Shown: positions 12,027-47,698, numbered from the stretch's first letter. The stretch is DNA of 64,000 nt from an uncultured Planctomycetota bacterium (GCA_964370855.1 CAYJMF010000004.1:25258-89257), one strand, 5' to 3'. Notes: a model not told the origin generated them from the letters alone. Translations and numbers: made by a program.

Positions 12027-12027
12027 G

Positions 12028-14530: not shown

Positions 14531-14541
14531 GGAGGGGTGTC

Positions 14542-15304: not shown

Positions 15305-15309
15305 TCGAC

Positions 15310-19647: not shown

Positions 19648-19688
19648 GCCGAACCCGGCCGGCGCCGGGGTGAATTCGAGGGAGCAGG

Positions 19689-20873: not shown

Positions 20874-20905
20874 ACGGAAAGGAAACGGTTCGAAAGGAGG
20901 CTTAC

Positions 20906-25232: not shown

Positions 25233-25236
25233 GCCC

Positions 25237-26679
25237 ATGAACATCCCGAGAATCCTGATCGCCGGGTTGCGCGGAGGCGGCGGCAAGACGCTCGTGGCCG
25301 TGGGGATCCAGGCGGCGTGGAGGAGGCGGGGGCTGGTCGTGGCCCCCTTCAAGAAGGGGCCCGATTTCATCGACACCGCGTGGTCCGCCGCCTCCGCGGG
25401 GCGGCCCTGCCGGAACCTGGACCTGTTCCTCTCCTCCCCGGAGAGGCTGGCGGCGTCCTTCGCCTCCGCGTGCGCGGGGGCGGAGGTCGCGGTCATCGAG
25501 GGGAACCGGGGGCTCTTCGACGGTGTGGACGCGCAGGGCTCCTGCAGCACGGCCGAGCTGGCGAAGCTCCTCCGGTGCCCCGTCATCCTCGTCGCGGACT
25601 GCGCCATGGCGACGCGGACCGTCGCGGCCATGGTCCTCGGATGCCGGGCACTCGACCCGTCGGTCCCGCTCCGCGGCGTGATCCTGAACCGCCTGGCCGG
25701 GGCCCGCCACGAGGCGGTCGTCCGGGCCGCCGTCGAGGAGGCCACCGGCCTCCCCGTGGTCGGGGCGATCCCCCGCCTGCCGACGGACATCCTCCCCGAG
25801 AGGCACATGGGGCTGGTCCCCCCCCCGGAGCGCGTCGGTCGGGAGGAGGCCATCCGGGAGGCGGGGGAGGCGGCCTCGCGGTTCCTCGATCTCGCGGCCA
25901 TCGAGGCGCTCGCGTGGACGGCACCGCCCTTCGACCCCCCCGTGCCCGCCTCCCGCAACCCGGGGACGGCGGGCCCCGGGCGCGTCCGCATCGGGGTCTT
26001 CCGCGACGCGGCCTTCCAGTTCTACTACCCGGAGAACCTCGATGCGCTGGTCCGGGAGGGGGCGACCCTGGTCGAGATCTCCCCGCTCGCGGATCGGTGC
26101 CTGCCCGAGGTGGATGCCGTGTACGCCGGGGGCGGATTCCCGGAGACCCATGCCGCGGGCCTGGCGGACAACGCCCCCTTCCGGGACTCGGTGCGCCGGG
26201 CGGCGGAGGGGGGGATGCCCGTCTACGCGGAGTGCGGCGGGGCGGTGTTCCTCGGCGAGACGCTGGACTACGGCGGAAGGGAGTACCCCATGGCCGGGGT
26301 CCTGCCCGTGGCCTTCGGATTCCAGGAGAGGCCCAGGGGGCACGGATACTCCCTCCTGGAGACGGTGGCGGAGAACCCGTTCTTCGCGGTCGGGGAGAAG
26401 CTGCGGGGCCACGAGTTCCACCACTCGTTCCCGCGGTCCGCATCGCGCGGGAACCTGGCCTTCGCCTTCCGGGTCGATCGCGGGACCGGGTTCGACGGCC
26501 GCAGCGACGGCCTCCTCGTCCGGAACGTCCTCGCCTGCTACACGCATCTCCACGCCCTCTCGGCCGAGGGGTGGGCGCCCGCGGTCGTGGCGGCGGCGAG
26601 GCGGTTCCGCGCCGGCGCCGCATCCGGCGCGGCCATGGCGGCCGCCGATCCGGTCCTCGCCGGGAGGGCCGGCCGATGA
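25237..26679 (+). CDS. dsrN: DsrN (cobyrinic acid a,c-diamide synthase-like sirohaem amidase)
   Basis: 480 aa CobB/CbiA-family protein. P-loop GLRGGGGKT. C-terminal glutamine amidotransferase region. Confidence 0.8.
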   Translation: MNIPRILIAGLRGGGGKTLVAVGIQAAWRRRGLVVAPFKKGPDFIDTAWSAASAGRPCRNLDLFLSSPERLAASFASACAGAEVAVIEGNRGLFDGVDAQGSCSTAELAKLLRCPVILVADCAMATRTVAAMVLGCRALDPSVPLRGVILNRLAGARHEAVVRAAVEEATGLPVVGAIPRLPTDILPERHMGLVPPPERVGREEAIREAGEAASRFLDLAAIEALAWTAPPFDPPVPASRNPGTAGPGRVRIGVFRDAAFQFYYPENLDALVREGATLVEISPLADRCLPEVDAVYAGGGFPETHAAGLADNAPFRDSVRRAAEGGMPVYAECGGAVFLGETLDYGGREYPMAGVLPVAFGFQERPRGHGYSLLETVAENPFFAVGEKLRGHEFHHSFPRSASRGNLAFAFRVDRGTGFDGRSDGLLVRNVLACYTHLHALSAEGWAPAVVAAARRFRAGAASGAAMAAADPVLAGRAGR

Positions 26680-27524
26680 GGTTCCTCCCCCTCGGGATCG
26701 ACCTGTTCAACAGGCCCTGCGTCGTCGTCGGCGGCGGCGTCGTGGGGACCCGCAAGGCGTTGACCCTCCTCCGGGCCGGGGCGGCGGTGACGGTGGTCTC
26801 CCCGGACGCGTCCCCGGATCTCCTCCGCGAGGTCGTCGCCGGCCGCGTCCTGTGGGTGAGGGAACGGTTCCGGAAGGAGCACCTCGAGGGGGCGTTCCTG
26901 GTGGTCATGGCCACCGACGACGGGGACCTCAACGAACGCGGGGGCCGGCTCGCCGCCGAGCGGCGGATCCTCTCCTGCGTGACCTCCGCCGCGGTCGATT
27001 CCCAGGTGATCTTCGGGGCCCTCCTGGACCACGGCGGCGCGACCGTGGCGACCTTCACCGACGGCAGGGATCCGGCCCTGGCGAAGAGGACCCGCGACGG
27101 GATCGCGGCCCTGCTCTCCCCCGGCGATGCGCCGGGGTCCGGGTCCGGCGCGCCCTGCGGCACGGTCCTCGTCCTGGTCGCCCACGGCAGCCGGAACCGT
27201 GGCTGGAGCGCCCCCCTGGAGGAGATGGTCCGGTCGATCCCCGGAGGAACGGGAACCGCGAGGGTGCGCCTGGCGTACTCCCAGTTCGCGCAGCCCACGC
27301 TGGAGCAGATCGTGGAGGAGGAGGTCCGCGCGGGCCGACGCCGGTTCCGGGTCCTCCCCCTCTTCATGACCGACGAAGGGCACGTGGAACGCGACATCCG
27401 TCCCGTGGTCGAGGGCCTGCGGGCCGCCCGCGGGTACATCGAGCTGGAGCTGCTGCCGGCGGTGGGCCGCCACCCGTCCTTCCGGGACCTGCTCGCCGGA
27501 ATCGCGAGGGAGGCGGCGAAATGA
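26676..27524 (+). CDS. bifunctional precorrin-2 dehydrogenase (SirC-like) / sirohydrochlorin chelatase (CbiX-like)
   Basis: N-terminal Rossmann VVVGGGVVGTRK as in CysG-N/SirC. C-terminal VLVLVAHGSRN as in CbiX. Confidence 0.65.
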   Translation: MRFLPLGIDLFNRPCVVVGGGVVGTRKALTLLRAGAAVTVVSPDASPDLLREVVAGRVLWVRERFRKEHLEGAFLVVMATDDGDLNERGGRLAAERRILSCVTSAAVDSQVIFGALLDHGGATVATFTDGRDPALAKRTRDGIAALLSPGDAPGSGSGAPCGTVLVLVAHGSRNRGWSAPLEEMVRSIPGGTGTARVRLAYSQFAQPTLEQIVEEEVRAGRRRFRVLPLFMTDEGHVERDIRPVVEGLRAARGYIELELLPAVGRHPSFRDLLAGIAREAAK

Positions 27525-29164
27525 GGACCGCGCGCCCGGAACCGGGAATCGTCTACCTGGTGGGAGCCGGCCCCGGCGACCCGGGACTCCTCACGCTGCG
27601 GGCCGCGGAGTGCCTGGCGAAGGCCGATCTCGTCCTGCACGACTACCTCGCCAACCCCGCGCTCCTCGAACGCGTCCGCCCCTCCGCGGAGATCGTCCGC
27701 CTCGGGCACCACTCCGACGGGAGGAGCCTCGAGCCCGACGGGATCACCGCACGGATGGTCGCGGAGGCCCTCGAGGGGAGGACCGTGGTGCGCCTCAAGG
27801 GCGGGGACCCCTCGATCTTCGGCCGCGGCGGCGACGAGGCGGACGCCCTGCGCGCCGCCGGGATCCCCTTCGAGATCGTCCCGGGGATCACCTCCGGGCT
27901 GTCCGTCGCCGCGTACGCGGAGATCCCCCTCACGCACCACGAGGACGCACCGGCGGTCGCCCTCGTGACGGCCCGGGAGCGGACCGCGAAGGGGGAACCC
28001 AACCAGGACTACGCGGCCCTGGCCTCCTTCCCGGGGACCCTCGTGTTCTACATGGGGGTCAAGGAGGTCGGGGACTGGAGCGGAGCCCTCATGGAGCACG
28101 GGAAGCCCCCGGAGACGCCGGTGGCCGTCGTGCGGTGGGCCACCCGCGCCCGGCAGCAGACCGTGCGGTGCACGCTCGGGACCGTCGCCCGGATCGTCGA
28201 GGAGCGGGGGCTCCGCCCCCCCTCCCTCTTCGTCGTGGGGAGGGTCGTCGCCCGCGCCCCCCGGCTCTCCTGGTTCGAGTCCCGCCCGCTCTTCGGCACG
28301 ACGGTCCTGGTGGCGGGTTCGGCCCCGACGTCCGGGAGGCTCCGGAAACAGCTGTCGGATCGGGGCGCCGAGGTCGTCGTCCAGGAGGCCATCCGCGTCA
28401 CCGGCCCGCCGGACCCGGCGGCCATGGACGCGGCCCTGGACGGGATCCGCCGCTACGACGGGCTGGTGTTCTCCAGCCCCAACGGCGTGGAGTCCATGAT
28501 GCGCAGGCTCTTCGAGCGCGGGGGTGACGTGCGGGGCCTGGCGGGGGTGAGGCTGATCGCGCTCGGCGCCGGGACCGCGGAGGCCCTCGTCCGCCACCAC
28601 CTCCGGCCCGATCTCGTCCCGGAGCGCATCGGGGCGGGGTCCCTCGCCCGCATCCTCGTCCTGGAGGGGGTGGAGCGGAGGTTCCTCCTGGCGAGGGCGA
28701 GCGACGACAGGTCCGTCCTGGCGAGGAAGCTGAGGGCCGCAGGGGCCGTCGTGGACGAGGTCGCGGTCTACGCGACCCGGAACGCGGACGAACCCGACCC
28801 CTTCCTGCTCCGGGCCCTGTCCGAGGGCGAGATCCACTGGGCCGCCGTCACGAGCGCCACCACCGCCCGCTCCCTGGTCCGCCTCTACGGCGACGCCCTC
28901 GCGACGGTCCGGATGGCGAGCATCAGCACGCTGACCTCCGACGCCCTGCGGGAACTGGGCCACCCTCCGGCGGCGGAGGCGGTGCCGCACACGATCCCGG
29001 GGCTCGTCGACGCCATCACGACGGCCGTGGGTGCCCTGGACCCGGAGGAGTCCGCGGTGGCCGCGAAGAGGCTCGAACTGGGCGACACGCGGTGCCGCGG
29101 TCCGGGAGAAAGGGCCTTCGAGGGCGGGACCGGATCCCCGGCCGGGATCCGGCGCGAGGGATGA
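27521..29164 (+). CDS. cobA-hemD: bifunctional uroporphyrinogen-III C-methyltransferase / uroporphyrinogen-III synthase
   Basis: N-terminal SUMT motif VYLVGAGPGDPGLLTL. The C-terminal ~250 aa are HemD-like. Confidence 0.8.
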   Translation: MRTARPEPGIVYLVGAGPGDPGLLTLRAAECLAKADLVLHDYLANPALLERVRPSAEIVRLGHHSDGRSLEPDGITARMVAEALEGRTVVRLKGGDPSIFGRGGDEADALRAAGIPFEIVPGITSGLSVAAYAEIPLTHHEDAPAVALVTARERTAKGEPNQDYAALASFPGTLVFYMGVKEVGDWSGALMEHGKPPETPVAVVRWATRARQQTVRCTLGTVARIVEERGLRPPSLFVVGRVVARAPRLSWFESRPLFGTTVLVAGSAPTSGRLRKQLSDRGAEVVVQEAIRVTGPPDPAAMDAALDGIRRYDGLVFSSPNGVESMMRRLFERGGDVRGLAGVRLIALGAGTAEALVRHHLRPDLVPERIGAGSLARILVLEGVERRFLLARASDDRSVLARKLRAAGAVVDEVAVYATRNADEPDPFLLRALSEGEIHWAAVTSATTARSLVRLYGDALATVRMASISTLTSDALRELGHPPAAEAVPHTIPGLVDAITTAVGALDPEESAVAAKRLELGDTRCRGPGERAFEGGTGSPAGIRREG

Positions 29165-29183
29165 CGATGCCGCGTCCGGCCCC

Positions 29184-29999
29184 TCAGGCGCCCGCACCCT
29201 GCAGCATCACGCGGGTCCCGTAGCGCACCTCCCGCACCCCCTCGACGGCGCGGGCCCCGGCGACGACGAGGTCGACCAGCCGCGGGTCGTCGAGCTTCCC
29301 CTCGACTTCGACACGGTCGCCCGACGCCCGGACCTCGACCTCGGCATGGGCCGTCCCCGGGTTCGCCGCGAGGGCGGCGCGCACGCGGCTCTCGAGAAGG
29401 AGATCCGCGAAGGCCCTCCGGCTCTCCTCGTCGGGCTGGAACCGGGGCCGGGAGATCGCCGCCGAGACCGCCGCACAGGCCCCCTCGATGTCGACGTGCT
29501 CCAGGTTGATCACGAGGTCGTAGAGCGACGGGTCGTGCCAGTCCACGCCGTAGAGGAACCGGGTCCACTTCACCCTCTCCCGGTCGACGCGCTCGACGTG
29601 GCGTTCGGCTCCCGCGCGGTCCAGGCCCCTTCGACGCATGACCTGCTCGACGCGGTACCCGACGGGCGCGATCAGGCGCACACGCATGACGTGCCGGACG
29701 CCCCGCAGCAGCAGGTGCCCGGCGTGCCCGTGGTAGACGACCCGGTCGTCGCGCACCCTCTCGCAGAGCGCCTCGCGGACGAAGGCGAGGTAGAGGATGC
29801 GGTCGTGGAGGAAGCGGTCCCAGAGGCCGGGTCCCTCCTCCATGACGCGGGCGAGCTCGGTCTCGGAGACGCCGTAGCGGGCGGCCGCGTCGGTGATCAC
29901 TTCGCGGCCGTAGACCCGGTAGCCGAGCATGGCCCCGAGGCGATTCGCCATCTCCTCGCCGCCGCTGAAGGTCCCACGGGAGATCGTGATGATGGCCAT
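29184..29999 (-). CDS. cytidylate-kinase-like P-loop protein with C-terminal BON-like domain (paralogue of 52309..53142)
   Basis: Starts MAIITISRG.. (ATG at 29999-29997). CMP-kinase-like family fold. C-terminus resembles a BON domain. Confidence 0.6.
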   Translation of the reverse strand: MAIITISRGTFSGGEEMANRLGAMLGYRVYGREVITDAAARYGVSETELARVMEEGPGLWDRFLHDRILYLAFVREALCERVRDDRVVYHGHAGHLLLRGVRHVMRVRLIAPVGYRVEQVMRRRGLDRAGAERHVERVDRERVKWTRFLYGVDWHDPSLYDLVINLEHVDIEGACAAVSAAISRPRFQPDEESRRAFADLLLESRVRAALAANPGTAHAEVEVRASGDRVEVEGKLDDPRLVDLVVAGARAVEGVREVRYGTRVMLQGAGA

Positions 30000-30084
30000 C
30001 AATCGCCTCCTCCGCCCGCGCCGGGAAGCTCCCGCTTGACGCCCGGACGACAAGGGGGGATCATACTCCCGGTCGACCGGCGAG

Positions 30085-31605
30085 TTGCGCCGCAATGGCG
30101 GATCGGATCCCAGGATGGAGGCGGCCCGCGGGCCGGTGGCTTCGCCCCGGTGGCACGAGGACCCCGCCGCCGCGGCGGACTTCGCCCTCCTGCACCGGCC
30201 GAGCTTCAGCGTCCGCAAGAAGATCGCGCTGAGCTTCCTCCTGTGTTTCCTGGTGATCGGGGGCGTCACCCTGGCGTCCTCCCTCATCCTGAGCCGCATC
30301 GAGGAGCGGCTGCACTTCATCGAGCTCGCGGACAACTACACCAGCCACATCCAGCAGGCGCGGCGCTACGAGAAGAACTTCCTGCTCTACGGAACGGACC
30401 TGTCCAACGCGAGGGACAACCTCCGCGCGGCCAGGGAGACCCTGCTGGGCGCGCAGCCCGAGATCGACCGGGTGGTCGGTTCCCGGACCCATCGCGAGAT
30501 GATGGGGCACCTGGATCGCTACGATCAGCTCCTCTCCCGCCTGGCAAGCGCGGAGGACAAGCAGGGGATCGAGCCCGAATTGCGGAAGCACGGCGGGGAG
30601 ATGGTGGAGGTGGCCCTGCGCGTGGCCGAGGCCGAGAGGAGAACGGTCCACGACCTGCTCCGGATCTGCAAGCTGATGCCCCTCGTGGCCATGGCGCTCC
30701 TCCTCGCCCTCATCGCCTACGTGGTCCACTTCCTGGCCCGGCAGATCCTCACGCCGCTCGGCCGGATCGTGGGGTACGCGCGGCGCATCGCGGAGGGCGA
30801 CTTCGCTCCCGTCTTCCCCACGCGGCGCTACCGGGACGAGTTCACGGACCTCGTCCTCGCCATGAACCGCATGACGAGGGAGCTCGACCGGCGGCAGGAG
30901 ATGCTCGCCTCGGCGCAGAAGCTCCGGGCCATCGGGACCCTGACCGCCGGGGTCGCCCACGAGCTCAACAACCCCATCAACAACATCTCGCTCACGGCCG
31001 AGGCGCTGCTCGAGGACGTCGGGACGCTCTCGGTCCAGGAGAGGACCGAGATGTGCCGCGACCTCCTCTCGCAGGCGGAACGCGCCCAGGGCGTCGTGCG
31101 CAACCTGCTGGATTTCTCCCGCCAGCGGGAGCCCCGCATGGTGTCGGTCGATGTCGGCCCGCTCCTCACCCGGACGTGCAAGCTGCTCTCCAACCAGGTC
31201 AGGCTGTCGCGGGCGAGGATCGAACTCGGGATCCCCGACGGCCTTCCCCCGGTCCTCGGCGACGAGCAGCAGCTCGCGCAGGTGTTCGTGAACCTCTGCC
31301 TGAACGCCCTCGAGGCCATGGACCGGCCGGGGCGGCTGGGGGTCACCGCCGAACGGGCGGCAGGGCGCCCCGGGTTCCTGCGGATCGGGGTGAGCGACAC
31401 GGGGCGGGGGATCGCCCCCGAGGTCCTCCCCTTCATCTTCGACCCGTTCTTCACGACGAAGGGGGCGGGTGGGACGGGGCTCGGGCTCTCGGTCAGCTAC
31501 GGAATCGTCGAGAAGCACGGGGGGACCATCGAGGCGGCCAGCAGGGTCGGCGAGGGGACCCGCTTCTCCGTCTACCTGCCGTTCGCCGCCGCGGCGGCTC
31601 CCTAG
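30085..31605 (+). CDS. sensor histidine kinase (TM-HAMP-HisKA-HATPase)
   Basis: H-box AGVAHELNNP. G-box FDPFFTTKGAGGTGLGL. One TM segment near the N-terminus. Confidence 0.8.
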   Translation: MRRNGGSDPRMEAARGPVASPRWHEDPAAAADFALLHRPSFSVRKKIALSFLLCFLVIGGVTLASSLILSRIEERLHFIELADNYTSHIQQARRYEKNFLLYGTDLSNARDNLRAARETLLGAQPEIDRVVGSRTHREMMGHLDRYDQLLSRLASAEDKQGIEPELRKHGGEMVEVALRVAEAERRTVHDLLRICKLMPLVAMALLLALIAYVVHFLARQILTPLGRIVGYARRIAEGDFAPVFPTRRYRDEFTDLVLAMNRMTRELDRRQEMLASAQKLRAIGTLTAGVAHELNNPINNISLTAEALLEDVGTLSVQERTEMCRDLLSQAERAQGVVRNLLDFSRQREPRMVSVDVGPLLTRTCKLLSNQVRLSRARIELGIPDGLPPVLGDEQQLAQVFVNLCLNALEAMDRPGRLGVTAERAAGRPGFLRIGVSDTGRGIAPEVLPFIFDPFFTTKGAGGTGLGLSVSYGIVEKHGGTIEAASRVGEGTRFSVYLPFAAAAAP

Positions 31606-34118
31606 GCGAACCGGGCGAAGTCCTCGGCGAGGAACCTCTCGGCGCACTCCTTCACGTCCCCGGCGTCCCCGAGGTTCATGTCCAGCTGGCGGGCGCACGC
31701 CAGGAGGAGCCCGAGCCGCAGGAGCCCCTGCTCGCAGTCCTGCCGGGGGACGGTCCGGAGCCACGCGTTGACGAGGTCACCCCGCCGATCCACGGTGAAT
31801 CCGTTCGCGCCCAGGACGGCTTCGATGAACCGCGCCCGCAGATCGCGTCGTTCCCTCGCCGCGCCTCCCCCCTGGAAACGGAAGCTCACGTAGTTGCTTT
31901 CCGTCACCTCGCCGACGACAGCGTCGATCATCGCGTAGTGGTAGGCCATGCGGGCGTTGAGGTTGAGGTAGTCGAGGGCGACGATCAGGTAGTTGCGGTC
32001 CCCCAGCCTGCGCATGCCCCGGTCGCGGGAGCCCAGGGAACCCGCCACGACCGACAGGAAGCCGGCCGGCGACACCTCGCGGCGCCCGGCCCAGGTCACC
32101 CGCGGGTCGGCGATCCCCTTCCACAGGGCGCGGAAGGGGATGCAGGTCATGGACTCCGGCGAGAGTCGACCACGCCGGCCGGGCGGATCGGAAACGCCCC
32201 CCCCCAGGTCGAGGACCTCCAGGTCGAGCGGGATCCCCGAGGCGAGGTGCCGGGCGGCGCGCCCTCCCCCGGTCGCGTAGCGATCGCCGAGGCGGAACAT
32301 CGCGTCGAGGGATCGCTCGTGCACCACCCGGACGAGATCGTGGATCGAGGAGCAGCCCTCCGCCCGGAAGGCCGCATCGGAAGGGTCGATGAGGTCGAGG
32401 CGCAGGATCCGATCCCACGGGAACCCCGGGGGCCGGCGCTCCGCCGGGGGGCGGCGCCGCCGGTTGCGGAACCCGGGCCAGGGAGTTCCGGAGTACACCT
32501 CGCCGCGGTTCCCGTCGACACCGACGACCTCGCCGGCCGCGAGGAGGGTCAGCGCATCCCGGGCATCGTAGACGGCGGGCACCTCGGCCTGGCGGACCAG
32601 GGCCGCGGCGTGGCTCAGGGGGCTCCCGGTTTCCGCGACGAGTCCCGCCACCCGGCCGAGGGCCCGGGCGAGCTCGGGCGTCGCCTGTCGGACGACGAGC
32701 ACGGATCCTTCGGGGGCTTCTCCCGCCTGCGCGGGGTTCGGGGCGAGGAAAACGGGGCCCACCGCCCGTCCGGGGGACAGGGGTCGACCACGCAGCTTCG
32801 CGGGGAGCGGCATTCCCGGATGGGCCCGGGCCGCGCGGTGCGGCAGGCGGAGCGGCCGCGCCTGGAGCACGACCAGCCGCCCCCCCTCGTCCATGGCCCA
32901 TTCGATGTCCTGGGCGCAGCCGAAGTGGCGTTCGATGTCGAGCCCCACCCGGGCGAGGCGCTCGATGTCCCCGTCCTCCAGGGCGGCGGTCTCGCGGTGG
33001 CGCTCCGGAATCGCCCTCCGGACCACGCCCGGCAGGTCCGGTTCCTCGACGAGTTCCGAGCACTTGCGGGCCACACGGCGTTCGAGGATCTCCCCCGGGG
33101 GGCGGCGCGAGAGGACGAACAGGTCGGCGTTCGCGGTGCCGCCGACGACATCGGCTCCCAGCCCGAAGGCCCCCGTGAACAGCATGCTGTTCCCCGCGGG
33201 GTCCTGGGGGTCGCGGGTGTAGAGCACCCCGGAAGCGCGCGCCGTGACCATGGGGAGGAAGAGGACGGCCATGGGGGTCTCGAACCCGGAGAGTCCCGCC
33301 CCTCGCCTGTACGCGAGGGCGCGGTCGGAGTAGCCGCTCGCGACGACGGCAAGGTAGGCGGAGGCGAGGCCGTCCCTGGGCACCCCGAGGCGGGTCTCGA
33401 ACTGGCCCGCGAAGGACAGCGGCCCGTCCTCCCCCACGGCGCTGGACCTCACCGCGAAGCGGCGGCCTTCGGGATGACGGTCCGCCCCCTCCCGGATGGC
33501 GGCCGCGATTGCCCCGGGCAATCGCGCGCCCTCCATCCTCCGGCGAAGCGACAGCGCCTCCCCGGCGAGCGCGGCCTCGTCCACGAGGGCCGCCGCGAGG
33601 AGCGCGCGCTGGCGGTCCGGGAGCCCGATCTCGCGCGCGAGAAGCCGATAGGATGCCGTGGTCGCCACGAAGCCCGGGGGCACGAGATCGGGGAGGATCC
33701 CGCGGATCTCGCCGAGGCGGGCGGCCTTCCCGCCGACCTGGTCGGGGTCGAGGGCCTCCGGGTCGTCGAGCCGGACGGCCAGGCGCCGTGCCGGACCGGC
33801 CGCGGCGGCGTCGAGTTCGGACCGGACCGCGGTCTCGATCCGATGATGGGCCGCGAAGAGCGCATCCTCGCGTCCCCCGGTCAGTTCGTTCAGGTCCTGG
33901 ACCAGTTCGAGGCTCAGCGCCAGGATCCGGAGGATGCGCTCGCGGATCGCGGTGTCGAAGGGGGCCTTCGTCCCGAGGTCGGCCTCGAGATCGGCGAACA
34001 GGGCGAGGAGCTCGCTGTTCCGGGCCAGGAGACGGCGAAAGGACGCGTACCTCCGGCGGAACTCGGGAACGTCGGCGCTCCCGGCGTGGAGCAGGCGGCG
34101 GAACCAGTCGAGGGTCAT
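31602..34118 (-). CDS. PpsA-like PEP-utilising dikinase paralogue 1 (ATP-grasp + swivelling phospho-His domain + non-canonical C-terminal domain)
   Basis: Motifs GGKAARLGE, AVRSSAVGEDG..SFAGQF, QDIEWA. His-domain motif GSPLSHAAALVRQAEVPAV. The C-terminal ~300 aa lack the canonical PEP-utilising TIM-barrel motifs. Confidence 0.8.
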   Translation of the reverse strand: MTLDWFRRLLHAGSADVPEFRRRYASFRRLLARNSELLALFADLEADLGTKAPFDTAIRERILRILALSLELVQDLNELTGGREDALFAAHHRIETAVRSELDAAAAGPARRLAVRLDDPEALDPDQVGGKAARLGEIRGILPDLVPPGFVATTASYRLLAREIGLPDRQRALLAAALVDEAALAGEALSLRRRMEGARLPGAIAAAIREGADRHPEGRRFAVRSSAVGEDGPLSFAGQFETRLGVPRDGLASAYLAVVASGYSDRALAYRRGAGLSGFETPMAVLFLPMVTARASGVLYTRDPQDPAGNSMLFTGAFGLGADVVGGTANADLFVLSRRPPGEILERRVARKCSELVEEPDLPGVVRRAIPERHRETAALEDGDIERLARVGLDIERHFGCAQDIEWAMDEGGRLVVLQARPLRLPHRAARAHPGMPLPAKLRGRPLSPGRAVGPVFLAPNPAQAGEAPEGSVLVVRQATPELARALGRVAGLVAETGSPLSHAAALVRQAEVPAVYDARDALTLLAAGEVVGVDGNRGEVYSGTPWPGFRNRRRRPPAERRPPGFPWDRILRLDLIDPSDAAFRAEGCSSIHDLVRVVHERSLDAMFRLGDRYATGGGRAARHLASGIPLDLEVLDLGGGVSDPPGRRGRLSPESMTCIPFRALWKGIADPRVTWAGRREVSPAGFLSVVAGSLGSRDRGMRRLGDRNYLIVALDYLNLNARMAYHYAMIDAVVGEVTESNYVSFRFQGGGAARERRDLRARFIEAVLGANGFTVDRRGDLVNAWLRTVPRQDCEQGLLRLGLLLACARQLDMNLGDAGDVKECAERFLAEDFARFA

Positions 34119-34137
34119 CGGGTGCCGGACGCGGAGG

Positions 34138-34536
34138 TCACCGGGCCGGCGGGGCCCCCGCCCGCTTCTCGAGGTCGGCCGCGGCCCGGAGGATCGTCTT
34201 CCGCAGGTCCTCGAGCATGAACGGCTTCGCCAGGAAGTCGAACGCCCCCAGGGTGAGGGCCTCCCGCGCGAGTTCCACGCTGGCGAATCCCGTGATCATG
34301 ATGACCCGGGTACGGGGGGACCGGTCGAGCACGTGTCGAAGGACGTCGAGCCCGTCGGTCCCCTCCATGCGCATGTCGGTCACCACGATGTCGTAGTCGT
34401 GCCCGTCGATCAGGCGGATGGCCTCGGCCCCCGTCTCCGCGGTGTCGACCTCGTACCCGGACTTCGCCAGCGCGGGTTTCAGGCGCTTTCCGACGATCGG
34501 CTCGTCGTCCAGGACAAGGATGCTGAGTCTCGCCAT
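34138..34536 (-). CDS. single-domain response regulator (CheY-like receiver, no output domain)
   Basis: MARLSILVLDDEP..VVTDMRMEG..DFLAKP. 132 aa. Confidence 0.8.
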   Translation of the reverse strand: MARLSILVLDDEPIVGKRLKPALAKSGYEVDTAETGAEAIRLIDGHDYDIVVTDMRMEGTDGLDVLRHVLDRSPRTRVIMITGFASVELAREALTLGAFDFLAKPFMLEDLRKTILRAAADLEKRAGAPPAR

Positions 34537-34552
34537 GGAGTCCTCCCCCCCC

Positions 34553-37045
34553 TCACGCGAGGGTGTAGTCGCCCCGGAGGAAGGCGTCGGCGTAGTGCCT
34601 GGACGCCTCCTCGGTGTGCATGAGCGCGTCGATCTGCCTCGTGAAGCCGATGAGCCGCCCGATGGTCTCGAGGCGGACCTCCGTCTCCGCACGGGGCAGC
34701 TTCCTGAGGCGGCCGACCACGAGGTCGCCGCTCTGCCGGGCCGCGAAGTCGAGGTGCTCGAGGATCTCGCGGACCAGGGTCGCGCGCCGGGCGCGGCGTT
34801 CCGGGTCGGAGGCGCCGCCCACGAAGCGGAAGTACACGTGGTTCGCCTCGCGCTCGTCGCAGAGGTAGGCGTCCACCATGGTGTAGTGGTACCCGAGGTT
34901 GAGGCTCAGGTTGACGTAGGAGTCCGAGACGACGGCCAGGTTGCGGCCGCTGTTCTGGCCGGCGGTCCGCGACGTGGCGCTCGCCAGGAAGGTCCTGAAG
35001 CCGACGGGAACCGGCCGGGTGCTCCACACCCCGGGAGCCGTCAACCCGGCCCAGAGCAGCCGCATGGGCGCCGACCGGACCGCGTCCGGGCGGACGGGCG
35101 CTCCGGCGGGGAGGGTCGCCACCCCCGGGTGCAGTCCGCCGCCGACGTCGATGATCCTCAGGTTCAGGGGGATCTCCGCCTCCAGCTGCCGTGCCGTCTC
35201 GGCCCCCGACACCCCGCCGCCCGCGATCAGCGCGATGATCTCCTCGACGGCCTTCTCGTGGGAGAACCGGATCACGTCGTGGAGGGTCCGGCACCGGTCG
35301 GGCCGGAACTGGTCCGACTGCGGATCGACGAGCTCGAGGGGGGTGATCCGCCTGAGGATCCTCCTCAGGAGGCGGTACTCGGGCGCGTCCTCGATCCCCG
35401 GCTCCTCCAGGAGCTGGTGGAGGAGGAGCTCCTCGACGCGTCCCCGGTAGACGACGATGTCGTCCGCGTCGATCGTGACTTCCATTCCGGCGGGGAGCCG
35501 GGAGGTGGCGTCGCCGCAGTCGACGATCGCGGGTACGCGGAACTCGCGGGCGAGCGCCGCCATGTGGCCCGTGGGAGCCCCGATGTCGGTGACGATGGCC
35601 GCGATCCGGGGCATGACGCGCACGAAGTGCGGGGAGGAGCGCCGTGCCACCAGCACCGCGCCCGGGGGAACGGCGTCGAGGTTCCCGTCGCCCTGGAGGA
35701 TGTGCACGCGGCCGACGGCCACCCCGCGGCAGGCGATGTGGCCCCTGCCCTCGAGGAGGATCTCACGGGCGCGGAGCACCTCGGGGAGGTTCCGGGGGGC
35801 TCCCCGCCGGGTGACCTTCAGGCGCCTCGCCTGGATGACGAAGAGCGTTCCGTCCGCGTCCCGCGCCCACTCGATGTCCTGCGGCTGCTTGAAGTACCGC
35901 TCGATCCTCAGCGCCATGGCGGCGAGCGCCGTCGCTTCGTCCCGGGCGAGCCCGGGAACCACCGTCACGGGCGCCGGAGCGCCCGTCGCCTCCGGGCCGC
36001 CCGCGGACGGACGGAGGGTCGCGTCGTGGGGCGGCTCCCGCGACAGCGTGTAGGTGGAGAAGCTCCGGATGCCCGCCACGGCGCGATCCGCGAGACCCGG
36101 GGTGGCCCCGAGCTGCATGAGTCCGCTTTCCGGACGCTCGGGCTCGACGGTGTAGAGCACGCCCGCCGTCGTGGCTTCGACCATGCGCATGCAGGCCACG
36201 GCCATGAGCCCGAAGGCGGAGGCGCCGCAGGCGCCGCGGTAGGAGCACGCCTCCGGGGAGTAGAGGCTCGCGAGGACCTCCCGGTAGGCGTCGACCACCC
36301 CCTCGACCGGGACATGGAGCACCGTCCGGTACTGGCCGGCGAAGGAGAGGTCGTCGTCCTCCCCGAGGGCGCTGGACCGTACCGCGAGGCGCAGGGGCCG
36401 GCCGCCGGCATCCATGGCGCGAAGGGCCTTCCCGATGGCGCGCCGGACGTCCCCGGGCACGGCGGCCGTCCGGAGCCTCCGGCAGACGTCCTCCATGGCA
36501 TGGACGTCCCCCCGGGCCGTACGCTCGATGGACTCCTCGATGACGGGTTCGAGCCGGTTCTCCTCGAGGATGCGGATGTAGGCGTGGGTCGTGATCGTGA
36601 AGCCGTCCGGAATGGGAATCTGCAGGCGGCTGGAAATCTCGCCGAGGTGCGCGCTCTTGCCTCCCACGAGGTCCGCGTTGCCTTCGTCGATCCGGCTGAA
36701 GGGCAGGCAGTACTCCGTGCGCGGGACGACCGGCCGGCCGGCGACGTCCCCGAGCGCGTCCGCGCGCAGCCGGTCCACCAGCAGGTAGAGCGCGGCGTAC
36801 CTCTGGTCGGCGATGCTGTTGAGGTCGTAGACGACCCTGTCCCCGAGGTCGAAGAGCTGGTCGACGATGGCCGCCACGTAGTGGCGGTCGAAGACGTACT
36901 CGCCGCTCTCCTTCTCGGCGGCGTCGGCGAGGATCTGGAGGATGCGGGTGTTGTTGTCGAGGAGGTTGCGGAAGCGGGCGAAGAGCAGCCTGAACGGCAC
37001 GTGCGGCCGCCCTCCGAACCCGAGCCACTTCCCGAGCCGCGACAT
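34553..37045 (-). CDS. PpsA-like PEP-utilising dikinase paralogue 2
   Basis: Internal start MSRLGKW.. (ATG 37045-37043). Motifs GGKSAHLGE, AVRSSALGEDD.SFAGQY, QDIEWA, GAPTGHMAALAREFRVPAIV. Confidence 0.8.
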   Translation of the reverse strand: MSRLGKWLGFGGRPHVPFRLLFARFRNLLDNNTRILQILADAAEKESGEYVFDRHYVAAIVDQLFDLGDRVVYDLNSIADQRYAALYLLVDRLRADALGDVAGRPVVPRTEYCLPFSRIDEGNADLVGGKSAHLGEISSRLQIPIPDGFTITTHAYIRILEENRLEPVIEESIERTARGDVHAMEDVCRRLRTAAVPGDVRRAIGKALRAMDAGGRPLRLAVRSSALGEDDDLSFAGQYRTVLHVPVEGVVDAYREVLASLYSPEACSYRGACGASAFGLMAVACMRMVEATTAGVLYTVEPERPESGLMQLGATPGLADRAVAGIRSFSTYTLSREPPHDATLRPSAGGPEATGAPAPVTVVPGLARDEATALAAMALRIERYFKQPQDIEWARDADGTLFVIQARRLKVTRRGAPRNLPEVLRAREILLEGRGHIACRGVAVGRVHILQGDGNLDAVPPGAVLVARRSSPHFVRVMPRIAAIVTDIGAPTGHMAALAREFRVPAIVDCGDATSRLPAGMEVTIDADDIVVYRGRVEELLLHQLLEEPGIEDAPEYRLLRRILRRITPLELVDPQSDQFRPDRCRTLHDVIRFSHEKAVEEIIALIAGGGVSGAETARQLEAEIPLNLRIIDVGGGLHPGVATLPAGAPVRPDAVRSAPMRLLWAGLTAPGVWSTRPVPVGFRTFLASATSRTAGQNSGRNLAVVSDSYVNLSLNLGYHYTMVDAYLCDEREANHVYFRFVGGASDPERRARRATLVREILEHLDFAARQSGDLVVGRLRKLPRAETEVRLETIGRLIGFTRQIDALMHTEEASRHYADAFLRGDYTLA

Positions 37046-37146
37046 TGCCTTGATTGGACCCCCGTCGGTTCCTCCCGGGCCGGTGATTCCCCGGGCCGCG
37101 GTCCCCCCTGCGGCGCTCCGCGGGGGCGTACCGGGCGACCGTTCCG

Positions 37147-37899
37147 CTAGTGGCCGCCTCCCTTCTTGAAGACCATCCCGATGAGGAGCCCGACGGTGAG
37201 GGCGATCCCGACCGACATCGCGCCGTACAGGGTGCTCCGGTGGAACGCCATGTGCGAGATGAACCGGGGGAATCCCACGAGTTCGACCCGGAGCCGCGCG
37301 GCCTCCTTTCCCACGACCCTTCCCCCGGCCACCTGGATGACGTCGACCGCGTAGTCCCCCGGGGGGGCGACGTCGGGCCATGGAATCGCGGCCTCGAAGG
37401 CCGGGTGGTCGCCCTGCTCGAGGCGGACGGCCCCTTCGAAGGCCCCGAAGGCGCCCTGCGAACGCTTGAGGGCGAGGTACTCGCGCCGGATGAGGGCCGG
37501 GTCGGGACCCGCGGGTGCGAAGGTCGCGGCGTTCAGGACGGCCTCGACGTCGAGGAGGTTCTCCGCGATCTCCCCCGGGGGCAGGAGTCCCGCCGCGGGC
37601 CGGCTGCAGGCGGCGAGCCACAGGCTCGGGGCCCCGGAGACCGACAGGGAGCCGACGTTGGCCCAGAAGGGACCCACGCGCCCCTTCCGCTGGTACTTCT
37701 CCTCGACCGCGGCTCCCGTGATCGTGACGAAGACGTGGGCCCCGGGCACGGCGTCGCCCCGCACGCGGATCATGGCGCCCTTGAAGGTCGCGTCGATGCG
37801 GACGGGGTCGGGCTCCACGGCGAGGTCCGCGAACGCGGTGCCCGCTCCCATGGCCCCGGCGAGGAGCGCGAGGGGGATCGCGGCCTTCATGGTGCGCAT
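37147..37899 (-). CDS. secreted protein with N-terminal signal peptide and C-terminal membrane anchor; accessory to the adjacent TauE/SafE gene
   Basis: 250 aa. Signal-like N-terminus MRTMKAAIPLALLAGAMGAG. C-terminal TM ends ..KKGGGH. Start overlaps the TauE stop. Confidence 0.5.
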   Translation of the reverse strand: MRTMKAAIPLALLAGAMGAGTAFADLAVEPDPVRIDATFKGAMIRVRGDAVPGAHVFVTITGAAVEEKYQRKGRVGPFWANVGSLSVSGAPSLWLAACSRPAAGLLPPGEIAENLLDVEAVLNAATFAPAGPDPALIRREYLALKRSQGAFGAFEGAVRLEQGDHPAFEAAIPWPDVAPPGDYAVDVIQVAGGRVVGKEAARLRVELVGFPRFISHMAFHRSTLYGAMSVGIALTVGLLIGMVFKKGGGH

Positions 37900-38816
37900 C
37901 AATGTCCTCCGGCGGGGGAGAGCAGCAGGGGAGGGGCCGCCACCATGGCGTAGACCATCCTCGCGCAGACGGCGAGCACGATGCAGGCGAGGATGATCCG
38001 GAGCTGCTCGCCGCGCAGGCGTCGCGCGACGCGGGCTCCGAACTGCGCACCGACCGCGGACCCGACGGCGAGGACGATCGCCAGGGTGAAGTCGACGGTG
38101 TGGTTCACGGATGCCTGCATGAAGGTCACCCAGCTGGAGGTGAAGAGGATCTGGAACAGATCCGTTCCGACGGCGACGTGCATCGGCATGCGGAGCATGT
38201 AGACCATCGCCGGGATCATGATGAACCCGCCCCCGACGCCCATGATGGCCGCGAGCACCCCCACGAGGGCGCAGAGGGCGATGGGGACGAACACCGACTG
38301 GCGGATGCCGGACTTGGGGAAGCTCGCCTGCAGCGGGAGGCGCTCGAGCAGCGTGGCGAGCCGCGAGGGCCCCCGCCCCCCTGCGGCTTCCTTCCGGGAC
38401 CCGCGGAGCGTCCCGAGGCTCTCGAGGAACATGTAGCCGCCGATGAGGCCGAGGACGACGACGTAGGTCGCCATGATGAGGAAGTCCGCGTTTCCCATCC
38501 GGCGCAGCACCCGGATGATCTGCACGCCGACGGCTCCGCCCGCGACCCCGCCGAGCAGCATCAGGCATCCCAGCTTGTAGTCGACGTTCCCCATCCGCGC
38601 ATGCGCGAAGGTGCCCGACGCGGAGGCGGCGACGATCTGGCAGGAATCCGTCGCGGCGGCCACCGTCGGGGGTATCCCGACCGTCATGAGGAGGGGCGTC
38701 ATCAGGAACCCTCCTCCGACCCCGAACATGCCCGAGAGGAAGCCGACCAGCACGCCGAGGCCGAGGGGGAGGAGGAGGTAGATGCATTTTCCGGCGATGG
38801 GAAGGAAGATGTACAT
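37899..38816 (-). CDS. TauE/SafE (TSUP, DUF81) family permease, paralogue 1
   Basis: Duplicated GVGGGF(L/I)M motif, the DUF81 signature. ~305 aa, 8 TM. Confidence 0.8.
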   Translation of the reverse strand: MYIFLPIAGKCIYLLLPLGLGVLVGFLSGMFGVGGGFLMTPLLMTVGIPPTVAAATDSCQIVAASASGTFAHARMGNVDYKLGCLMLLGGVAGGAVGVQIIRVLRRMGNADFLIMATYVVVLGLIGGYMFLESLGTLRGSRKEAAGGRGPSRLATLLERLPLQASFPKSGIRQSVFVPIALCALVGVLAAIMGVGGGFIMIPAMVYMLRMPMHVAVGTDLFQILFTSSWVTFMQASVNHTVDFTLAIVLAVGSAVGAQFGARVARRLRGEQLRIILACIVLAVCARMVYAMVAAPPLLLSPAGGH

Positions 38817-39244
38817 GGCTGGAATCGCGATCCATCCAGGGGTTCGTGGACTCCCGGGATGCTCCCATGCCGGACCCGCTCCATGCGTCTGCGGCTCGCC
38901 GAGGCGGCCGGAGCCGTGGAACGGGCTCCGCGCATCGGCGGCACGGGGCCCGCCTCGGTCCGGGAGTCTCTCCTCCGCATGCTGCGGGGAGGAGGAGGCC
39001 GACCTCCGCGGCGGCGAGCGGCGGGCCCGCGCTTCCTTTCAGCGGTCCAACGTACACCCGTTCCTCCCCGGGGGGAAGAGGCAGGGAGCGGGGCGGACGC
39101 GGGTCGAGACGGGCGTCAAGGAGCCGCCATCGCCACCCGGGAGCGCCGCGGCGGGAGGTCCACGCCGGCATCCGGAGGGGACCGTGACCCGGGCACACCC
39201 GGCGCCGGGGGGGAAGGGCGGGGAGGAGTAGGATCCCCCTCGTC

Positions 39245-40156
39245 ATGGACCGGTGGTACGTGCACTTTCCCGTGTCGGGGGTGGACGTCTGCCTCCTCCT
39301 TCCCCCGCTGGCGGCGTTCGCGATCTCCGCGGTGACGTCCATGGGAGGGGTGTCCGGCGCGGTCCTCCTCCTGCCCTTCCAGGTCAGCATCCTGGGGTTC
39401 ACGAGCCCCTCGGCCAGCGCCACCAACTTCGTCTACAACATCGTGGCCATCCCGGGAGGCCTCTGGTGCTACGCGAGGGAGCGGCGGATGGCGTGGCCGC
39501 TGGCGTGGATCATCGCCGCCGGCACGCTGCCGGGGGTGCTGATCGGCTTCCACGTCCGGGTCCGCTGCCTGCCCGACCCCCGTGCCTTCAAGCTGTTCGC
39601 GGGGTGCGCGCTCCTCTGCTTCGGGATGTGGCTGCTCCTCCGGAACGGCGGGAAGGCGGAGTCCGCCCGCGACGGCGGGCTCCCGGCGGGACTTCCTCCC
39701 GATGCCGTTGTGCGCACGGCCTCCTTCTCGCTCCGCCGCGCGGAGATCGAGTTCCGGGGTGAGCGGTTCCCGTTCAGCGTCCCGGGGGTGTTCGCCCTGG
39801 CGCTCGCGGTCGGTGTCTTCGGCGGGATCTACGGCGTCGGGGGCGGTGCGATCATCGCGCCCGTCTGCGTCGCCGCCTTCGGCCTCCCGATCCACGCGGT
39901 GGCGGGGGCGGCGCTGGCGGGAACGTTCCTCACCTCCGTCGCCGGGGTCGTCGTCTACGGCGCGATGCCCGTCGAACCCGGCATCGCGGTCCGCCCCGAC
40001 TGGCTCCTCGGCCTCCTGTTCGGCGCCGGCGGGCTCGCGGGGACGTACGCCGGGGCGCGGCTCCAGCGGTACGCCTCCCCCCGGTTCCTCCGGGCGATGC
40101 TGGGGCTGATCCTCCTCGGGACGGCCCTGCAGTACATCCACGGGTTCCTCCGTTGA
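39245..40156 (+). CDS. TauE/SafE (TSUP, DUF81) family permease, paralogue 2
   Basis: GIYGVGGGAIIAP motif. Polytopic. 303 aa. Confidence 0.75.
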   Translation: MDRWYVHFPVSGVDVCLLLPPLAAFAISAVTSMGGVSGAVLLLPFQVSILGFTSPSASATNFVYNIVAIPGGLWCYARERRMAWPLAWIIAAGTLPGVLIGFHVRVRCLPDPRAFKLFAGCALLCFGMWLLLRNGGKAESARDGGLPAGLPPDAVVRTASFSLRRAEIEFRGERFPFSVPGVFALALAVGVFGGIYGVGGGAIIAPVCVAAFGLPIHAVAGAALAGTFLTSVAGVVVYGAMPVEPGIAVRPDWLLGLLFGAGGLAGTYAGARLQRYASPRFLRAMLGLILLGTALQYIHGFLR

Positions 40157-40186
40157 ATCTCGCCGGAAGGGCCGTCGACCGGTATC

Positions 40187-40204
40187 CGTGATTTTTCTCA
40201 CAAT
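40187..40204. promoter_or_regulatory. conserved motif cGTGATTTTTCTCACAATt (GTGA-N6-TCAC) upstream of the RR/TauE/HK operon
   Basis: One of three copies of GTGATTT(T)CT(G/C)CACAAT in this window (also at 52044 and 59526). Confidence 0.45.
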
Positions 40205-40249
40205 TTCCTGACGGCCTTCCGTCGGCGGTGCTAGCATCGATGGTCGGCA

Positions 40250-40750
40250 GTGGTCCGGCCTCCAGCGGGTGCGGCATCCCATGCTCTTGCCGGTGTCGAG
40301 CCTTCGGTCCTCGACGGGATCGTGACGGACCCCGCCGTGCCCCCGGCCGCGCGCGTCCGCGTCCTTGTCATCGACGACGAGGCGGACTTCGCGACGGCGA
40401 CCGCCGAACGGCTGGTCCGCCGGGGCTTCCACGCGGTCCCCGTCTTCGACGGCCGCGCCGGCCTGGATCGGATCGCGGCCGGCCCCTTCGACGCGGTCCT
40501 GCTCGATCTCCGGATGCCGGGGATGGACGGTCTGGCGGTCCTCCGGGAGATCCGTCGCGTCGATCCCCACCTCCAGGTCGTGGTGCTGACCGGGCACGGA
40601 ACGGTGGCTTCCGGGATCGAGGGGATGCAGATCGGCGCCGCGGACTTCCTCCGGAAGCCCGCGGACTTCGATGGTCTGGTGACGGCGGTGCAGGCGGCCG
40701 CGGAGTCCACCCGCGCCCGCAGGGAGGCCGCCCGGGGAGGTGCCCGATGA
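40250..40750 (+). CDS. single-domain response regulator (CheY-like receiver)
   Basis: RVLVIDDEADF..LLDLRMPGMDG..DFLRKP. GTG start at 40250. True start uncertain. Confidence 0.75.
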   Translation: MVRPPAGAASHALAGVEPSVLDGIVTDPAVPPAARVRVLVIDDEADFATATAERLVRRGFHAVPVFDGRAGLDRIAAGPFDAVLLDLRMPGMDGLAVLREIRRVDPHLQVVVLTGHGTVASGIEGMQIGAADFLRKPADFDGLVTAVQAAAESTRARREAARGGAR

Positions 40751-41082
40751 GGAGGATCCCGTTCAGCGCCGTCCGCCGGAGGGCGCGCCGCTTCGCCCTT
40801 CCGCTCGCGGCGGCGGCGCTGGCGCTGGCGACGTGGTGCGCGGACGCCGCGGCCGCGGGGGGAGGAAAGCCCGCGTCGAAGCTCGTCAACGTCGCGGACA
40901 CGCGGTCCCTCGAGGCGGGCTTCTCGAGGTTCGTGGCGGACGTCTACAACGAGAGCTACTGGCTCTTCGCCCTCCTCGTGGTGGTCCTGATGGCGGGGCT
41001 CGGCCTCTTCCTGGGAATCGTGGCCGATCGCCTCTTCGCCCTCCTGGGGATCAACCTGGGGAGGATGTCGCACCACGAGTGA
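40747..41082 (+). CDS. small membrane protein (signal/TM), accessory to the TauE/SafE gene
   Basis: 112 aa. ATG overlaps the RR stop. Hydrophobic helix LFALLVVVLMAGLGLFLGIV. Confidence 0.45.
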   Translation: MRRIPFSAVRRRARRFALPLAAAALALATWCADAAAAGGGKPASKLVNVADTRSLEAGFSRFVADVYNESYWLFALLVVVLMAGLGLFLGIVADRLFALLGINLGRMSHHE

Positions 41083-41100
41083 CCGGGGGAGGCGGCGACC

Positions 41101-42452: not shown

Positions 42453-42475
42453 CCCGGCGGACCGGGAGCGGACCC

Positions 42476-42880: not shown

Positions 42881-42884
42881 GGCC

Positions 42885-47272: not shown

Positions 47273-47287
47273 GGGGCTCGCCAGAGC

Positions 47288-47677: not shown

Positions 47678-47698
47678 TTCCCGCCTCCTCCCGCCCGG

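Follow-up and report, generated by a model that had tools for sequence, protein, structure and literature searches.

A stretch of 64,000 nucleotides from an uncultured Planctomycetota bacterium (GCA_964370855.1 CAYJMF010000004.1:25258-89257), hereafter the window, was analysed with the focus on two genes at 31602-37045, designated A and B, whose products are related to phosphoenolpyruvate (PEP) synthase, PpsA. Together with three further copies in the window, designated C, D and E, they belong to a family that is named PPSL here. PPSL is a descendant of PEP synthase in which an N-terminal three-helix bundle was gained and the TIM barrel was exchanged for an unrelated alpha+beta domain, and it is not itself a PEP synthase.

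The window has a GC content of 72% and contains many spurious long open reading frames (ORFs), and a plus-strand ORF at 34418-37150 was rejected as a gene, being a high-GC artefact. The real genes at 31602-37045 all lie on the minus strand and are A, a receiver of 132 amino acids and B. Exactly five full-length paralogues were detected in the window by tblastn with A as the query. A shared 33-35% identity with the other four over the full length (E 1e-100 to 1e-109), so the motifs common to A-E are attributed to homology and not to chance. The five genes are as follows.

31602-34118, minus strand: paralogue A, 838 amino acids; codon of the catalytic His503 at 32610-32612, C-terminal domain at 31605-32477
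34553-37045, minus strand: paralogue B, 830 amino acids; orthologue of the member found after TauE and Alph_Pro_TM in most genomes
44711-47272, minus strand: paralogue C, located by tblastn with A
49335-51884, minus strand: paralogue D, located by tblastn with A
54308-56917, plus strand: paralogue E, located by tblastn with A

B was used as the reference for residue numbering; 57 of the 63 ORFs lying in an Alph_Pro_TM-PPSL-receiver context were nearest to B.

Domain architecture and conservation of the PPSL proteins

The domains of B were delimited as follows.

36713-37045, minus strand: residues 1-111, family-specific N-terminal extension, predicted by AlphaFold2 to be a three-helix bundle (helices 18-45, 54-78 and 85-101)
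35771-36712, minus strand: residues 112-425, ATP-grasp domain PPDK_N (PF01326)
35417-35770, minus strand: residues 426-543, phospho-histidine swivel domain (PF00391, E 6e-20), codon of His494 at 35564-35566
34556-35416, minus strand: residues 544-830, C-terminal alpha+beta domain as modelled by AlphaFold2, with no family or PDB sequence match

The only Pfam matches of A-E were PF01326 PPDK_N (E 1e-57 to 1e-63) and PF00391 PEP-utilizers (E 1e-12 to 1e-20), and the first ~110 and the last ~290 residues gave no Pfam match even at E<=0.1; PF02896 was likewise absent at this threshold. The NCBIfam PpsA models (TIGR01418 and NF005057) aligned to A-E only over model positions ~1-465, with 226-264 bits against the curated equivalog cut-offs of 739.75 and 598. 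B and E. coli PpsA shared 31% identity over residues 114-525 of B (E 5e-50); the alignments with the PpsA structures from Neisseria and archaea covered residues 112-541 and ended there. The PpsA alignment thus begins at residue 112-114 of B, and conservation within the protein is lowest in the bundle in front of it, with a mean identity of 22% among the window paralogues.

Conservation was determined with an alignment of 116 sequences, namely 111 full-length homologues from 80 genomic loci and the five window copies. The ATP-grasp residues of B (Lys130, Arg223-Ser-Ser, Glu229, Ala236-Gly-Gln, Asp390, Glu392, Gln405 and Arg407) were kept in about 110/116 as far as the catalytic ones are concerned. 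His494, which the alignments place on the catalytic His motif of PpsA from E. coli and Neisseria, was kept in 116/116; an apparent loss of this His in 14 paralogues was rejected, having been caused by an over-strict regular expression. Judged from their sequences, A-E are derived from PpsA, with the ATP-grasp residues and the catalytic His intact.

In total, 48 positions were conserved at >=95%; the C-terminal domain accounts for 27 of them, the ATP-grasp domain for 8 and the N-terminal bundle for 3. The C-terminal domain (~285 amino acids) is therefore the best-conserved part and, by this measure, the functional core of PPSL. Its invariants in B are Cys585, His589, Asp590, Arg593, His596, Asp633-x-Gly-Gly-Gly, Pro660, His720, Asp725, Phe739-Arg-Phe-x-Gly743-Gly744, Arg751, Arg754 and Asp806, and Glu597, Gly637, Asn735, Arg740, Asp774 and Arg803 are also among the conserved positions. 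When 20 of the C-terminal invariants were checked in A-E, nearly all of them were kept, the deviations being those of D at Glu597 (Gln) and Arg803 (Asn) and of E at Glu597 (Gln) and Arg740 (Leu). The core that is invariant across A-E comprises G-K, RSSA, E, AGQ, D.EW, His, C...HD..R..H, D.GGG, H....D, F.F.GG and R..R.

No recognised relative of the C-terminal domain was obtained. Its profile gave nothing significant against the PDB sequences, and a likeness to UCH-L5 was rejected as chance-level (E 0.02 over 55 residues). With hhalign, three candidates were rejected at the sequence level: a diverged PEP/pyruvate barrel (0.13% against E. coli PpsA), a hidden kinase core (0.3% against a histidine kinase of the window) and an internal duplication (<1% against the first 543 residues of B). 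Reading of the 'LHD..R..HE' stretch as an H-box was also rejected, no search backing it. The AlphaFold2 model of the domain, built with 33 family sequences (predicted local distance difference test, pLDDT, 86; predicted template modelling score, pTM, 0.82), consists of helices followed by runs of antiparallel beta-hairpins, and is for this reason incompatible with a (beta/alpha)8 barrel. The full-length model repeats this fold (pLDDT 82, pTM 0.64) and gives the N-terminal extension as three long helices. Foldseek with the C-terminal model returned no match at E<=1e-3, DesKC (GHKL) being found only at E 0.15. The domain is therefore new to the curated resources queried, where it has neither recognised relatives nor a curated family.

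On the model, the conserved residues map to one long helix (Cys-x3-His-Asp-x2-Arg-x2-His-Glu), to a pair of Gly-rich loops that lead from strand to helix (D-x-G-G-G and F-R-F-x-G-G) and to the start of a further helix, which carries an Arg cluster. Together with His720 and Asp725, and as placed by conservation and modelling, they look like a putative active site of an anion- or phosphoryl-binding, possibly metal-dependent, kind.

A search with the C-terminal profile among 1.84 billion cluster representatives (clusters at 50% identity) yielded 1,502 proteins at E<=1e-3 and 771 at E<=1e-30. The domain was almost always located at residues ~560-850 of proteins with ~850 amino acids and was nearly exclusive to the PPSL architecture, and the shorter matches look like fragments at contig ends. 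The search with full-length B gave >1,500 homologues, mostly from Desulfobacterota and other sediment anaerobes, and at least 592 matches were found in species-representative genomes. In the databases the homologues go by 'pyruvate, water dikinase' or 'PEP/pyruvate-binding domain-containing protein'.

An earlier note on this DNA, made from the sequence alone, had assigned to all five proteins the PpsA nucleotide-binding motifs, the swivel-domain phospho-His motif and a set of C-terminal conserved blocks. The nucleotide-binding motifs are approximately right and the patterns too strict, C having VGVK and SHAGQ and D having LDMEWA; the His is present in every copy, and the pattern around it was drawn too narrowly (LVRQAEVP in A); the C-terminal blocks are homologous and conserved, with FLFHGGA in E outside the proposed pattern. 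A short N-terminal motif, also proposed there, is real and weakly conserved. The claim that the C-terminal region is no canonical PEP-utilising barrel was borne out by the lack of PF02896, the hhalign value against PpsA and the non-barrel predicted fold. The note had named two findings that would speak against it. As to the first, Pfam, NCBIfam, hhalign, AlphaFold2 and Foldseek all failed to indicate a diverged TIM barrel; as to the second, the absence of the His on careful alignment, the residue was found in every aligned member.

Conserved gene cassettes and the gene map of the window

For the analysis of synteny, 80 related loci from species-representative genomes were scanned with hidden Markov models of the window proteins. 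TauE, Alph_Pro_TM, PPSL and a single-domain receiver followed one another in this order on one strand in 55 of the 64 assessable loci, distributed over many lineages, and a receiver lay directly 3' of the PPSL gene in 58/71 loci. Of these 55 cassettes, 39 had a same-strand kinase, and in the other 16 no canonical kinase could be located on that strand of the locus; further PPSL paralogues were present in 23. In Ignavibacteria, Zixibacteria and Latescibacterota the order was permuted to TauE, Alph_Pro_TM, receiver, Cytidylate_kin2 and PPSL. Genes for Cytidylate_kin2 proteins (P-loop, nucleoside monophosphate kinase-like), one of them with a BON domain, recurred in the window, in loci L087 and L088 and in several of the loci L017-L063, and a sub-cassette of Cytidylate_kin2, a membrane peptide of ~62 amino acids, TauE and PPSL was also conserved. 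Both cassettes of the window were repeated in L088, an unrelated metagenome-assembled genome, including Cytidylate_kin2, a peptide of 63 amino acids, TauE and PPSL. The pair of a DVU0150-family gene and TauE was also located upstream of the main cassette in L008 and L018.

Genes of the apr/dsr type occurred within 10 kb in only 2/80 loci, L006 and L007, which are two of the three closest relatives and carry apr/qmo genes. A general linkage of PPSL to dsr/apr genes was rejected on this count, so adjacency to a sulfur island is not a trait of the family, and the conserved partnership is that with TauE/Alph_Pro_TM and the receiver.

In three independent homologue clusters (P0074, P0076 and P0089), a receiver was fused ~10 residues past the C-terminal domain. 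In the fusion loci L087 (8001-10940) and L088 (8001-10916), the fused gene was followed by a second, free receiver gene and preceded by genes for Cytidylate_kin2, a kinase, TauE and Alph_Pro_TM. In addition, six homologues lacked Lys130, Arg223, Glu392, Gln405 and Arg407 and kept the His and every C-terminal invariant that was checked. Each of these ATP-grasp-dead homologues was the second PPSL gene, placed after the receiver, in an operon of the order enzyme, receiver, enzyme, enzyme. As the ATP-grasp residues are lost and the His is kept, the His would therefore be charged in trans, by a partner paralogue in a hetero-oligomer or by a receiver or relay. The six genes are as follows.

L034, 11330-14014: ATP-grasp-dead homologue
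L042, 11323-13923: ATP-grasp-dead homologue
L047, 4096-6789: ATP-grasp-dead homologue
L053, 11285-13873: ATP-grasp-dead homologue
L062, 11197-13929: ATP-grasp-dead homologue
L070, 8346-10862: ATP-grasp-dead homologue

The gene map of the window was taken from the pre-computed Pfam annotation of identical contigs. The PPSL block spans 29-57 kb and is composed of four units, together with a flanking Cytidylate_kin2+BON gene and a HAMP kinase gene. The first unit is a minus-strand operon of TauE, Alph_Pro_TM, B, receiver and A. The features other than A-E are as follows.

1-4500: triad of an AAA_5 (MoxR-like) ATPase, a DUF5682 protein and a VWA_CoxE protein
4792-22135: complete dissimilatory sulfur island upstream of the PPSL block, with aprBA, qmoABC, sat, an OsmC-like gene, dsrC, a DsrT-like gene (RsbRD_N), dsrMKJOP and the dsrAB start
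23556-29164: GltD-like Fe-S flavoprotein, CbiA-like amidase, then siroheme genes (NAD_binding_7/CbiX and TP_methylase/HEM4)
29184-29999, minus strand: Cytidylate_kin2 + BON protein, 271 amino acids, a recurrent PPSL neighbour
30115-31605, plus strand: HAMP-HisKA-HATPase histidine kinase, convergent with A
34138-34536, minus strand: single-domain receiver between B and A, 132 amino acids (PF00072, E 4.5e-30), with Asp10, Asp11, Asp54, Thr and Lys
37147-37899, minus strand: Alph_Pro_TM membrane protein directly upstream of B, 250 amino acids (PF09608, E 6e-42)
37899-38816, minus strand: TauE/TSUP-family transporter, 305 amino acids (PF01925), first gene of the unit 1 operon
39245-44549, plus strand: unit 2, seven genes
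39245-40156, plus strand: TauE
40337-40750, plus strand: receiver
40747-41082, plus strand: DVU0150-family small secreted protein (PF28216 on record, below the threshold in the Pfam copy scanned)
41101-42147, plus strand: TauE downstream of the DVU0150-family gene
42144-42452, plus strand: lipoprotein-like ORF of 102 amino acids downstream of TauE, weak DUF4881 match
42476-42880, plus strand: receiver
42885-44549, plus strand: kinase with dCache_1 and HATPase_c
44711-51884, minus strand: unit 3, operon of D, dCache kinase, receiver and C
47699-49345, minus strand: dCache-HisKA-HATPase kinase, overlapping the end of D
47288-47677, minus strand: receiver between this kinase and C
52339-56917, plus strand: unit 4, second cassette, without a receiver
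52339-53142, plus strand: Cytidylate_kin2
53168-53356, plus strand: membrane peptide of 62 amino acids
53356-54273, plus strand: TauE directly upstream of E
56898-61843: second DsrMK-like pair (Nitrate_red_gam and Fer4/CCG protein), Rex-type redox repressor and HemA, on the other flank of the block

The four receivers of the window matched PF00072 with E 2e-26 to 4.5e-30, and all of them kept the acidic pocket, the phospho-acceptor Asp, the Thr and the Lys in an alignment with CheY. The kinase at 42885-44549 had no HisKA match on record, unlike the two other kinases of the block. E and the gene of the CCG protein converge, and their ends overlap (56917 for E). From their Pfam content only, the GltD-like gene is possibly DsrL and the CbiA-like gene possibly DsrN. 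Concerning the DVU0150-family neighbour gene alone, DVU0150-DVU0146 is given as a transport operon in a paper on the D. vulgaris sigma-54 regulon. No sigma-54 promoter consensus was found in the window, and no PADLOC anti-phage defence model matched A, B or the Alph_Pro_TM, TauE, Cytidylate_kin2 and DVU0150-like proteins.

In another assembly (L003, ERZ13692943 NODE_422), D was identical and C was of the same size with the same kinase and receiver neighbours. There, C is followed by miaA, hisS and a CTP-transferase gene and not by the kinase/receiver/TauE block on the way to B, A and the dsr island; E, with 796 amino acids, is shorter, and the TauE gene before it is swapped for an ORF of 334 amino acids with no Pfam match. 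The contrast with 29000-44700 of the window reflects a structural variant or else a difference between the assemblies.

Proposed function, alternatives and known systems

We tentatively favour, at a little under even confidence, the reading of PPSL as an ATP-driven phospho-His enzyme with a small anionic acceptor other than pyruvate, linked to TauE transport, and with the receiver as a switch. By analogy with PpsA, PPDK and rifampin phosphotransferase, and given the conserved catalytic residues, ATP would bind to the ATP-grasp domain and His494 would be phosphorylated with the release of AMP and Pi, after which the swivel domain would deliver the phosphoryl group to the C-terminal domain. The acceptor may be a small anionic metabolite tied to what TauE/TSUP and its Alph_Pro_TM partner move, and the CheY-like receiver, acting under the dCache/HAMP histidine kinases of the same operons, might toggle the enzyme on and off; both of these steps are speculative. 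This reading is favoured because the C-terminal domain looks catalytic and is nearly identical at its conserved positions in all paralogues, and because one cassette has no receiver and a canonical kinase that could charge the receiver is there in most cases. The coupling to TauE also counts for it, both in the main cassette and in the second cassette of the window and of L088, where TauE directly precedes PPSL and there is no receiver. For the receiver, a regulatory role seems likelier than that of an obligate acceptor, since there is one receiver for 2-3 PPSL genes and none in the second cassette, and since kinases accompany 39 of the 55 cassettes.

Several points weigh against it. The putative ligand site is located through conservation and a modelled structure; a set of five paralogues at a single locus, among two-component genes, looks more like signalling than metabolism; and the receiver fusions, together with the His-retaining, ATP-grasp-dead paralogues after the receiver, fit a phosphorelay better than a simple regulation. 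Moreover, the substrates of TauE/TSUP, a functionally diverse transporter family, are so varied that the nature of the small acceptor is a guess.

In the first alternative, the main rival, which we consider rather unlikely, PPSL would be a phosphorelay of the PpsA type, in which the phosphoryl group passes from ATP by way of His494 to the Asp of the receiver and, in certain operons, further to the His of a second, ATP-grasp-dead paralogue. The C-terminal domain would dock the receiver and catalyse or control the transfer, and the signals would run to or from the TauE/Alph_Pro_TM pair. The position of the receiver gene immediately after PPSL, its fusion to the PPSL C-terminus as in hybrid histidine kinases with a free receiver downstream, and the phospho-acceptor residues kept in all window receivers are consistent with such a relay, as are the six ATP-grasp-dead homologues just after a receiver, the several paralogues per locus that are typical of signalling proteins, the translationally coupled gene order and the 16 cassettes with no canonical kinase. 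It is opposed by the second cassette (Cytidylate_kin2, 62 amino acids, TauE and E) having no receiver, by one receiver serving 2-3 enzymes and by canonical kinases able to charge the receiver usually being nearby. Furthermore, a docking surface would need fewer polar residues than the ~27 that are near-invariant (with 3 His, 5 Asp, 4 Arg and 1 Cys among them), the C-terminal domain has no sequence similarity to histidine kinases, and the N-terminal bundle has no conserved His. It is doubtful that PPSL is a new class of phospho-donor for receivers, that is, an ATP-grasp/swivel-His kinase in a His-Asp(-His) relay wired to TSUP/TauE in sulfur-cycling anaerobes, which would provide an ATP-driven, PTS-like control of signalling or transport with a new catalytic end domain (PTS, phosphotransferase system).

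Two further alternatives are much less probable. A nucleotide or nucleotide-like acceptor, with the C-terminal domain as a remote relative of DHHA1/C-Ala and the Cytidylate_kin2-like P-loop proteins handling the product or recycling AMP, is quite improbable. Equally improbable is a non-catalytic C-terminal domain, serving as a sensor or in oligomerisation or binding of a membrane partner, with ATP turnover or autophosphorylation as the output, for example to gate TauE. Canonical PpsA forms large oligomers, which counts for the latter, as do the 24 chains listed in the PDB entries 8a8e and 9dae, the tight conserved adjacency to TauE and Alph_Pro_TM and the lack of a recognisable catalytic fold. 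However, the invariant His, Asp, Cys and Arg and the Gly loops are typical of an active site, and the ATP-grasp-dead paralogues, which keep the His and the invariants, are hard to square with ATP turnover as the sole output. Finally, that A-E are ordinary PEP synthases with a TIM barrel diverged past motif recognition, as the database name 'pyruvate, water dikinase' and the clearly PpsA-like N-terminal two-thirds might suggest, is effectively refuted and extremely improbable.

With regard to the acceptor, the earlier note had predicted a dikinase acting on something other than pyruvate; this is the natural reading, as the C-terminal ~285 amino acids are not a diverged PEP/pyruvate TIM barrel. 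A sulfur-containing acceptor, which it thought conceivable, is speculative. The sulfur link draws on the TauE (TSUP) neighbours, the apr/qmo/sat/dsr adjacency, the taxonomic distribution and one proteomics paper, and is suggestive but lineage-specific. The comparison with selenide, water dikinase (SelD) is an analogy in reaction type only, SelD belonging to an unrelated fold family and A-E having no PurM-like AIRS/AIRS_C Pfam match. A candidate protein acceptor, the adjacent response regulator, gained real support from synteny and gene fusions.

No characterisation of the PPSL family was found in the literature searched. In a proteomics study of Dissulfuribacter thermophilus, a 'PEP synthase' (DITHS69_1988), a 'transmembrane protein co-occurring with TauE' (_1989) and TauE (_1990) follow one another and were up by 3.4, 1.8 and 1.6 log2 units, respectively, under thiosulfate disproportionation, and the 'PEP synthase' was read as gluconeogenic by the authors (PMC13490349). 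The gene order matches the cassette, so that this protein is probably a PPSL member. The joint rise of the three proteins counts for the small-anion reading; against this use of the study, the membership is only probable and the locus tag is inconsistent, A0A1B9F8F1 appearing as DITHS69_1988 in the table of the paper and as DITHS69_1161 in its text (PMC13490349). If A0A1B9F8F1 is a PPSL member, the gluconeogenic interpretation is probably wrong.

The current database name of PPSL is misleading, and the 'pyruvate, water dikinase' label leads to false gluconeogenesis calls in metabolic reconstructions and omics of sulfate reducers, disproportionators and sediment anaerobes. The near-universal operon offers a handle on two poorly understood families, TauE/TSUP and Alph_Pro_TM, and in this genome five PPSL copies sit in an apr-qmo-sat-dsr island. 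If the receiver lies in the phosphotransfer path, a new type of two-component phospho-donor would be at hand.

The PpsA/PPDK superfamily is a textbook case of modular phosphotransfer, in which each new acceptor domain (for rifampin, prodigiosin precursors, phenol and starch) brought new chemistry. PPSL shares with PpsA (EC 2.7.9.2) and PPDK the order of ATP-grasp and phospho-His swivel domains as well as the conserved catalytic residues and His, and differs from them in the unrelated domain in place of the PEP/pyruvate TIM barrel and in the extra N-terminal bundle; against the pyruvate, phosphate dikinase model TIGR01828, A-E scored <=42 bits with a cut-off of 843. Further close systems are rifampin phosphotransferase (RPH), the prodigiosin ligases PigC and RedH and PpsA relatives of the HpeI type. 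For the models of RPH, PigC and RedH, A-E were far below the cut-offs, and the domain order of these enzymes (ATP-grasp, acceptor-binding and C-terminal His domain) is not that of A-E. The same superfamily includes phenylphosphate synthase and alpha-glucan, water dikinase, which are dikinases with acceptors other than pyruvate; they have another subunit or domain organisation and are not known to have an equivalent of the PPSL C-terminal domain. Enzyme I of the PTS is charged by PEP in its TIM barrel and has no ATP-grasp domain, whereas PPSL has an ATP-grasp domain and no barrel, and the Enzyme I models shared the swivel domain alone with A-E (14-22 bits, cut-offs 341-824). Hybrid histidine kinases and His-Asp-His phosphorelays are resembled by the fused PPSL proteins in the combination of an ATP module, a phosphorylatable His and a C-terminal receiver, and by the family in its tight linkage to receivers; PPSL differs from them in having neither HisKA nor HATPase_c by Pfam, in line with the hhalign value against the window kinase.

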